Assembly: GCF_013167455.1 (NCBI RefSeq)
Contig: NZ_CP038328.1
Reading direction: 5' to 3' (one strand)
Source: Escherichia coli O157:H7
GTDB lineage: Bacteria > Pseudomonadota > Gammaproteobacteria > Enterobacterales > Enterobacteriaceae
DNA length: 64,000 bases
Shown: positions 9,623-11,352 of the stretch, in pieces
How positions within the stretch are numbered: position 1 is the stretch's first letter
How the letters are laid out: each line of letters begins with the position of its first letter
The notes under the pieces: generated by a model
Databases searched by the model: none
What the model saw: the letters and a program-made list of their open reading frames with translations, nothing else
What the model was told of the DNA's origin: nothing
Translations under genes and position numbers: made by a program

Positions 9623-10282
9623 ATGGACCTGATTTATTTCCTCATCGATTTTATCCTGCACATTGACGTGCATCTGGCAGAGCTGGTCGCGGAGTACGGC
9701 GTTTGGGTTTATGCCATTTTGTTCTTAATTTTGTTCTGTGAAACCGGTCTGGTGGTAACGCCGTTTTTACCGGGTGATTCATTGCTGTTTGTTGCCGGAG
9801 CGTTGGCATCACTGGAAACCAACGATCTCAACGTCCATATGATGGTGGTGCTGATGCTGATCGCCGCGATTGTGGGTGACGCGGTCAATTACACTATCGG
9901 GCGCTTGTTCGGTGAAAAGTTATTCAGTAATCCCAATTCGAAAATTTTCCGTCGCAGTTATCTCGATAAAACCCATCAGTTTTATGAGAAACATGGCGGC
10001 AAAACGATTATTCTCGCCCGTTTTGTGCCGATCGTCAGAACGTTCGCCCCGTTTGTTGCGGGAATGGGCCACATGTCGTACCGTCATTTCGCTGCTTATA
10101 ACGTGATCGGCGCACTGTTGTGGGTACTGCTTTTTACCTACGCAGGCTATTTCTTCGGTACAATCCCGATGGTTCAGGATAACCTTAAGCTGCTGATCGT
10201 CGGGATTATTGTGGTTTCTATTTTGCCGGGCGTCATCGAAATAATCCGTCACAAACGCGCTGCGGCACGCGCCGCAAAATAA
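9623..10282 (+). CDS. dedA: DedA-family inner membrane protein
   Basis: 219 aa, multi-TM. Confidence 0.92.
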
Positions 10283-10353
10283 AAAGTAACTCCGCGGTTC
10301 GACCACTTTTTTATCCAAAGTTTCGGGCTGTTATGTTTTAATGTGCAACATTC

Positions 10354-10437
10354 ATGGTCTGTTGGGGGCAAAAATGGCATTATGCGTCCCCAAAGATAAA
10401 ACTGGCATCGAACCAGGTTCAGACAGAAAGGTCCCTA
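10354..10437 (+). promoter_or_regulatory. accD 5' leader (in-frame extension of the track ORF, probably untranslated)
   Basis: Track ORF begins 84 nt upstream of the MSWIERIK start; AccD is reported to bind its own mRNA leader. Confidence 0.4.
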
Positions 10438-11352
10438 ATGAGCTGGATTGAACGAATTAAAAGCAACATTACTCCCACCCGCAAGGCGAGCATTCCTGAA
10501 GGGGTGTGGACTAAGTGTGATAGCTGCGGTCAGGTTTTATACCGCGCTGAGCTGGAACGTAATCTTGAGGTCTGTCCGAAGTGTGACCATCACATGCGTA
10601 TGACAGCGCGTAATCGCCTGCATAGCCTGTTAGATGAAGGAAGCCTTGTGGAGCTGGGTAGCGAGCTTGAGCCGAAAGATGTGCTGAAGTTTCGTGACTC
10701 CAAGAAGTATAAAGACCGTCTGGCATCTGCGCAGAAAGAAACCGGCGAAAAAGATGCGCTGGTGGTGATGAAAGGCACTCTGTATGGAATGCCGGTTGTC
10801 GCTGCGGCATTCGAGTTCGCCTTTATGGGCGGTTCAATGGGGTCTGTTGTGGGTGCACGTTTCGTGCGTGCCGTTGAGCAGGCGCTGGAAGATAACTGCC
10901 CGCTGATCTGCTTCTCCGCCTCTGGTGGCGCACGTATGCAGGAAGCACTGATGTCGCTGATGCAGATGGCGAAAACCTCTGCGGCACTGGCAAAAATGCA
11001 GGAGCGCGGCTTGCCGTACATCTCCGTGCTGACCGACCCGACGATGGGCGGTGTTTCTGCAAGTTTCGCCATGCTGGGCGATCTCAACATCGCTGAACCG
11101 AAAGCGTTAATCGGCTTTGCCGGTCCGCGTGTTATCGAACAGACCGTTCGCGAAAAACTGCCGCCAGGATTCCAGCGCAGTGAATTCCTGATCGAGAAAG
11201 GCGCGATCGACATGATCGTCCGTCGTCCGGAAATGCGCCTGAAACTGGCGAGCATTCTGGCGAAGTTGATGAATCTGCCAGCGCCGAATCCTGAAGCGCC
11301 GCGTGAAGGCGTAGTGGTACCCCCGGTACCGGATCAGGAACCTGAGGCCTGA
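10438..11352 (+). CDS. accD: Acetyl-CoA carboxylase carboxyltransferase beta subunit
   Basis: 304 aa from ATG 10438; N-terminal C4 zinc finger [26 protein letters not shown]. Confidence 0.96.

Follow-up and report, generated by a model that had tools for sequence, protein, structure and literature searches.

Where does AccD begin? In the 64,000-nt stretch of the Escherichia coli O157:H7 genome that we analysed (hereafter the window), the ORF listing gives a plus-strand reading frame of 332 amino acids at 10354-11352, with an internal in-frame ATG at 10438-10440 from which MSWIERIK is read. The frame is closed upstream by a TAA at 10339-10341, and the segment between the two ATGs, 10354-10437, amounts to 84 nt or 28 codons, embedded in the E. 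coli gene order usg-truA-dedA-accD-folC, in a region that is identical or near-identical in 5425 of 5426 complete E. coli genomes. These 28 codons could be the N-terminus of the protein or a part of its mRNA leader. An earlier note, made from the sequence, had counted the same 28 codons before MSWIERIK, a count that is exact, and had taken them to be probably leader and not coding. The evidence from reading frame, diversity, Shine-Dalgarno (SD) pairing, codon usage and annotation agrees with that assessment, and we conclude that the segment is very probably untranslated leader of the accD mRNA, lying outside the AccD protein, and that the true start is the ATG at 10438, Table 1.

Table 1 Features of the accD upstream region and start, in window coordinates
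Feature	Position	Strand	Remarks
accD-directed transcription starts (TSSs) inside dedA	10171 (-267), 10192 (-246)	+	Kim et al. 2012, supplementary TSS table
FadR-like box GCGGTTCGACCACTT	10294..10308	.	upstream of accD promoter; GC-rich; invariant in Enterobacteriaceae
AT tract ACTTTTTTATCC	10305..10316	+	fixed distance from -10 box, E. coli to Photorhabdus
Weak -35-like TCCAAA	10314..10319	+	17 nt upstream of -10 hexamer; conserved E. coli to Photorhabdus
Extended -10 TGtTTTAAT	10334..10342	+	TG(G/T)TTTAAT in 72/79 ortholog loci
TSS at -87 from accD ATG	10351 (approximate, +/-1)	+	Mendoza-Vargas et al. 2009, supplementary file 3; single 454 read
28-codon in-frame 'extension'	10354..10437	+	very probably untranslated leader: broken frames, flat diversity, SD +0.9 kcal/mol, rare codons
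HP1, 5'-proximal stem-loop (GUCU.UUGGGGGC ... GUCCCCAAAGAU)	10357..10397	+	MFE -15.5 kcal/mol, z -2.08
Out-of-frame uORF, 25 codons	10374..10451	+	overlaps accD start; TGA 10451 overlaps accD codons 4-5
HP2, CUGG-loop-CCAG (CUGGC/GCCAG in most species)	10402..10416	+	RNAalifold; present in nearly all species
Translation-initiation-region stem	GUUCAG 10417-10422 with UUGAAC 10448-10453 (codons 4-6)	+	encloses SD and AUG
Shine-Dalgarno GAAAGG	10426..10431	+	6 nt before ATG 10438; AAAG core invariant, flanking Gs at least 90% (43 aligned species)
accD CDS	10438..11352	+	carboxyltransferase beta subunit of acetyl-CoA carboxylase; 304 aa and a stop codon

Several records place the start of the protein at the internal ATG. 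RefSeq entries WP_000118404.1 and NP_416819.1 begin at ATG 10438 and comprise 304 aa in both genomes checked, and residue 1 of PDB 2F9Y chain B is the Met encoded at 10438, its alignment setting in at residue 29 of the 332-aa ORF. Taken together, 2F9Y_B and 8UXZ_D align to this ORF from residues 29/30, corresponding to Met1/Ser2 of the 304-aa form; both are recombinant constructs, and show the 304-aa form to be sufficient rather than what the native N-terminus is. The zinc-finger cysteines (TKCDSCGQ...VCPKCDHH) are C27, C30, C46 and C49 only if numbered from ATG 10438, and it is by the names C27, C30, C46 and C49 that the published AccD zinc-finger mutants are known (Meades et al. 2010). Across the orthologs, MSW(I/L)E(R/K)I occupies the position equivalent to 10438 in all 79 of 79, and the SD duplex that the 16S 3' end can form at this ATG (AAGG at 6-nt spacing) reaches -3.4 kcal/mol, which is only moderate. 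The further statement of the earlier note, that the zinc-finger-bearing N-terminus of AccD begins at the internal ATG, is thus borne out by the RefSeq and PDB starts and by the cysteine numbering. The reference annotation already places the start at ATG 10438 and treats what lies upstream of it as non-coding. As an aside on the protein itself, the 90%-identity cluster that contains AccD (10438-11349) also holds several FolC proteins of 422 aa, including its representative P0003, which, FolC being the product of the neighbouring gene, is presumably a clustering artefact, perhaps arising via a fused or read-through gene call.

For the comparison of the extension across species we used 80 accD loci from different Enterobacterales species, 79 of which include the start. 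An in-frame stop lies within 28 codons upstream of MSWIE in 56 of these 79 loci, and within 10 codons in 25 of those 56, and in 44 of the 79 the upstream stop is reached without a single in-frame ATG, GTG or TTG. An upstream (A/G)TGG, as found at 10354, is present at 49 loci; it is in frame with accD at 33, and both in frame and open at 15 including the window, all of them Enterobacteriaceae. The interruptions extend to close relatives: in Citrobacter youngae, with an AccD identity of 98%, the extension frame reads MVC-stop, ending at codon 4, and in Phytobacter and Enterobacter sp. ENT03 a stop lies 3 codons upstream of the accD start. Among the loci with an open frame, the extension peptide diverges wherever indels occur, and the conserved CAGGTTCAGGCAGAAAGG is translated as QVQAER in some species and as RFRQKG in others, its conservation being independent of frame. 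An alignment of orthologs, which the earlier note had proposed, therefore finds that the 28-residue extension is not conserved as a protein.

The nucleotide substitutions tell the same story. Diversity by codon position, calculated on 23 alignable Enterobacteriaceae species and with the same set for both regions, is 0.183/0.159/0.160 in the extension, compared with 0.053/0.022/0.349 in accD codons 1-100; the profile in the extension is flat, and there is therefore no protein-level constraint there. No Shine-Dalgarno sequence is found at ATG 10354 (+0.9 kcal/mol, a value equalled or bettered by 95% of the ATG triplets in the window), and very rare codons (GGG, ATA, AGG, CTA) make up 4 of the 28 codons of the extension versus 6 of the 304 of accD (Fisher P = 0.006). 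That the frame is open at all in E. coli does not weigh in either direction: 28 stop-free codons are expected by chance with P ~0.26, and an open stretch of 32 codons contains one ATG or more with P ~0.40, so that the existence of the extension is uninformative on translation. The 332-aa ORF would then have arisen by accident, as a stop-free run between a chance in-frame ATG and the true start. Against a leader-only reading, ATG 10354 is well conserved in Enterobacteriaceae, within the block CATT(C/T)ATGGTCTG, and 15 loci keep the frame open. We also considered, as a possible coding signal, that the distance from the ATGG to the accD ATG is divisible by 3 in 12 of 22 distinct lengths, which by hand count is above expectation, and rejected it: the excess is weak, shared ancestry confounds it, and stops interrupt most of the longer spacers that are in frame.

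The transcripts reported for this gene provide a second line of evidence. On all published transcripts the 84 nt form 5' leader, and on the shortest, which starts at -87, they constitute nearly the whole of it. The start at -87 was given a sigma70 -10 box 'atgtTTTAATGTgcaa' (TTTAAT) by Mendoza-Vargas et al. (2009), and lies 9 nt past the -10 hexamer and ~3 nt before ATG 10354. Downstream of the extended -10 follows the block CA(T/C)T(T/C)ATGGTCTG. The promoter architecture itself, with the FadR-like box, the AT tract, the weak -35 and the extended -10 at fixed spacing, is conserved across Enterobacterales. The larger data set of Kim et al. (2012) reports only the two starts inside dedA, with 153 and 159 reads, and the flanks printed there match the window, ending at 10171 and 10192. 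Accordingly, transcription of accD begins from two promoter regions or more. The start at 10171 is preceded by a TACAAT -10 box at 10159-10164. The AT tract and TCCAAA may act as an UP-element or a -35. A scan of 10150-10600 with promoter and terminator consensus models returned only one minus-strand match of each kind, at chance level; the extended -10 was missed because its -35 is weak. The two matches, a promoter-like ATGCCA-18-CATAAT and a terminator-like element, both inside the leader at 10379-10416, occur at a frequency seen in shuffled sequence and were taken as chance. Transcription would proceed from the conserved extended -10, beginning at ~10351, in addition to the starts inside dedA, and on the short transcript ATG 10354 would find itself ~3 nt from the 5' end, devoid of a ribosome-binding site and abutting a hairpin.

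Within E. coli, the intergenic region stands out by its uniformity: a 198-nt query covering the dedA-accD gap (10283-10480) is at least 99% identical in 5346 of 5425 genomes, and a 361-nt query that includes coding flanks (10200-10560) reaches at least 99% identity in only 2282 of 5425, the intergenic part being the more uniform of the two.

If the segment is leader, one may ask whether it is a structured one, as the earlier note had described it. This description holds locally, in that hairpins and a stem at the start codon emerge by comparison between species, and fails globally. The fold of 10330-10470, which the note had put forward as a check, has an MFE of -30.1 kcal/mol with z -0.02, no more stable than shuffled sequence and without signal, and the fold of the full leader, 10348-10470, is not significant either (z -0.49). 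Among folds in the leader, only the local stem-loop HP1 reaches z ~ -2. All 18 of the 18 representatives have a hairpin at the HP1 position, right after the AUGG. Its z ranges from -0.7 to -5.6, and its stem, ~22 to ~100 nt in length, is unrelated in sequence between clades. Within Enterobacteriaceae, 79% of cells in the HP1 core stem are paired, versus 37-60% in slid controls, and compensatory changes are found in 4 of 8 pairs. HP1 is absent in the Phytobacter group (L012, L013, L015, L025, L028) and in Morganellaceae (L061-L078); the former also lack HP2, their ATGGGCT running straight into ACCAGGTTCA, so that the whole leader measures ~35 nt. Some genera can therefore do without the hairpins. 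HP1 might stabilise the transcript, or insulate the initiation region from upstream sequence, and we consider such hairpin-specific roles much less certain than the conclusion that the segment is non-coding.

In several other genera (Yersinia, Serratia, Pectobacterium, Rahnella and Brenneria), HP1 has grown to a hairpin of ~100 nt with z down to -5.6, as exemplified by Yersinia nurmii (L044:1844-1959), with similar cases at L043, L045, L047, L050, L055, L059 and L079. The apical stem-loop of the Yersinia nurmii hairpin (L044:1879-1916), followed by UUUUUAUU, looks attenuator-like by eye; a terminator scan of the Yersinia leader insertion gave no match, and neither did Rfam. Hafnia and Edwardsiella leaders are similarly long.

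The part of the leader closest to the start codon behaves differently from HP1 in being maintained in sequence. The ~25 nt before the AUG are near-invariant from Escherichia to Yersinia, Serratia, Edwardsiella and Dickeya, and the near-invariant stretch CCAGGTTCARRCAGAAAGG falls in different frames in different species. In HP2, 88.6% of cells are paired and both-side changes occur in 3 of 5 pairs; wobble replacements are seen, as are a small number of compensatory ones. Three loci (L026, L037, L057) carry 10-60 nt inserted in the loop, which extend the stem and keep the closing stem. The E. coli version is a weak representative, with an A at 10412 where most species have G, leaving only 4 bp (-4.2 kcal/mol and z -1.66 for the E. 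coli sequence). The stem of the translation-initiation region was recovered by RNAalifold and has 96% of cells paired in 43 species; it is thermodynamically weak (-6.7 kcal/mol, z +0.09), and its support from covariation is modest because most of its columns are invariant. The leader is conserved at the level of nucleotides and structure, independently of reading frame. HP2 and the start-region stem may together set the accessibility of the start codon. We also examined, and discarded, a conserved switch between HP2 and an anti-HP2 fold: in E. coli the HP2 fold (-10.9 kcal/mol) and an alternative (-11.6 kcal/mol), which hides the AUG by pairing CCAG with the CUGG that spans codons 2-3, are near-isoenergetic, and the alternative is competitive only there, HP2 winning by 0.7-9.3 kcal/mol in the other 42 of 43 species.

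What could this conservation be for? Between Escherichia and Yersinia, Serratia or Photorhabdus, the last ~40 nt of the leader have changed far less than a ribosome-binding site would demand. One could speculate that they form an undescribed, Enterobacterales-wide cis-regulatory RNA that tunes AccD translation via a trans-acting protein or small RNA or via a structural switch. Its candidate core would be the near-invariant GGUUCA(R)(R)CAGAAAGG, taken together with HP2 and with the base pairs that this stretch forms with accD codons 4-6; we hold this to be a tentative proposal, and rather unlikely as it stands. Nothing comparable to the candidate core precedes accA, and no Rfam family describes it: a search of window 10000-10800 against Rfam 15 at E <= 10 gave two chance matches to eukaryotic families, neither in the leader, and nine ortholog loci gave no match at gathering score. 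Were the proposal correct, the leader core would help to keep AccD production in step with AccA and with growth rate. It is therefore a candidate for a post-transcriptional control that acts on the committing step of fatty-acid synthesis, for an enzyme, acetyl-CoA carboxylase, with subunits encoded at three unlinked loci and a stoichiometry that awaits explanation.

The inverted repeat of HP2 could in principle be read in DNA. FadR is cited as a direct regulator or activator of acc operons and is reported to regulate accD, and the CTGGC-N4-GCCAG of HP2, downstream of the promoter, might then be a site for a dimeric factor, for instance a FadR-like one recognising TGG-N5-CCA. The half-sites are indeed conserved in sequence more than they covary, and Mixta, Pantoea IMH, Tatumella and Morganella are among the species with an exact TGG-N5-CCA. 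The number of nucleotides separating TGG from CCA, however, varies from 5 to 7 and is 7 in E. coli; the 10-60 nt insertions in L026, L037 and L057 form paired stems, which an RNA hairpin tolerates and a dimer operator does not; and the changes from U-A to U-G and from G-C to G-U preserve RNA pairing, not DNA symmetry. A DNA site at HP2 is for these reasons improbable in our view. Upstream of the promoter, the box at 10294 presumably resembles a FadR operator, with its TGG-N5-CCA core, and is a candidate site only.

A more specific proposal for an RNA element is that the leader is the operator at which the carboxyltransferase (AccA2AccD2), via the AccD zinc finger, represses its own translation. 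The enzyme is reported to bind the accA and accD mRNAs and to inhibit their translation in vitro (Meades et al. 2010), and conservation in the 25 nt that precede the AUG goes far beyond what an SD alone requires. Binding was nevertheless mapped to the coding regions, the optimal fragments being 684 nt long and beginning at the start site, and the accD 5' UTR was deliberately omitted from the transcripts because the accA 5' UTR was not needed (Meades et al. 2010). The repression model has moreover met with a challenge from Smith & Cronan 2014, as a 2024 paper notes, and in the active filament or assembly, according to a cryo-EM study, the zinc finger is buried. Nor does accA offer a parallel, since the dnaE-accA gap is 12 nt, with no comparable leader and no motif shared between the accD and accA leaders. 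We accordingly give an operator of this kind very little credence. The earlier note had presented the leader as the one through which AccD is reported to autoregulate its translation, a link that is unsupported given that binding maps to the coding region and the 5' UTR was left out. Tempting as it is, the link needs correcting: the published carboxyltransferase-mRNA repression model does not involve the accD leader.

Two further alternatives would have part of the leader translated. The first is a minor 332-aa AccD proteoform, initiated at AUG 10354 in E. coli and its nearest relatives, perhaps in near-leaderless fashion given the ~3 nt that precede this AUG on the -87 transcript. The frame is open here as well as at 14 further Enterobacteriaceae loci, where the ATG is conserved, and some GenBank submitters annotate the 332-aa form (e.g. 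UTI89 ABE08068.1). Against such a proteoform stand the missing SD (+0.9 kcal/mol), the 4 of 28 very rare codons and the absence of a codon-position signature, together with the MVC* of Citrobacter youngae at 98% AccD identity and the differences between open-frame peptides at indels; ribosome profiling flagged only an out-of-frame start in the leader (Weaver et al.), and the AccD N-terminus is reported to participate in complex assembly (cryo-EM study). We regard its existence as very improbable indeed.

The out-of-frame start leads to the second alternative. A G-run (GGGGG) 5 nt upstream of ATG 10374 resembles an SD, at -8.4 kcal/mol, which ranks this ATG triplet within the top 2% of those in the window, and precedes a 25-codon uORF. 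Using ribosome profiling with stalled initiation complexes, Weaver et al. (2019) predicted a smORF, ORF33, that overlaps the 5' end of accD in another frame; the uORF at 10374-10451 is probably this ORF33, an assignment made because it is the only strong candidate that fits the description. That the leader acts through translation of this uORF, coupled to or interfering with accD initiation, could be argued from the strong G-run, from the stop overlapping accD codons 4-5 and from the profiling prediction, and is scarcely credible. The reporter data largely refute it, in that an ORF33-lacZ fusion had no measurable activity and that changing its start codon to a stop left accD-lacZ unchanged (Weaver et al. 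2019). In addition, the G-run is the 5' arm of HP1, and the uORF peptide is not conserved: close relatives either lack it or have a version of 7-25 codons.

How, then, does the locus as described here relate to what has been recorded elsewhere? With respect to the reference E. coli accD (b2316; NP_416819.1 / WP_000118404.1; 2F9Y chain B), start and numbering are the same and there is no difference. Older GenBank models, by contrast, carry the 332-aa sequence exactly as in the ORF here, via longest-ORF logic (E. coli UTI89 ABE08068.1 and APEC O1 ABJ01705.1), and a 327-aa model from Klebsiella variicola is among the over-extended ones as well; the UTI89 and APEC O1 records assert the extension as protein, which the present evidence contradicts. 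In database occurrence, the 304-aa AccD is found on at least 1000 contigs and the 332-aa form on 90. The 332-aa model, which a number of GenBank records still carry, extends too far upstream; it is the 304-aa protein on which residue numbering, constructs and homology models should be based. ORF33 (Weaver et al. 2019) is, like the uORF at 10374-10451, a small ORF in the accD 5' UTR that runs over the accD start, and differs from the 28-codon extension in its frame and in its lack of reporter expression. The model of Meades et al. (2010) concerns the same gene and shares the idea of post-transcriptional self-control, and is contested.

The closest structural parallel to HP1 is the 5' UTR of ompA. 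Stem-loops of this type reportedly stabilise enterobacterial mRNAs, and potential stem-loops have reportedly been noted in the accA and accD leaders themselves. The two cases differ in that the ompA type of protection needs a nearly flush 5' end, whereas HP1 lies ~6 nt from the -87 start, itself a single-read site, and is internal on the dedA-internal transcripts, which start 160-180 nt upstream; several genera, in addition, do without HP1. What HP1 has in common with the ompA 5' UTR is its location near the 5' end, before an A-rich ribosome-binding region, and the fact that its position is conserved and its sequence is not.
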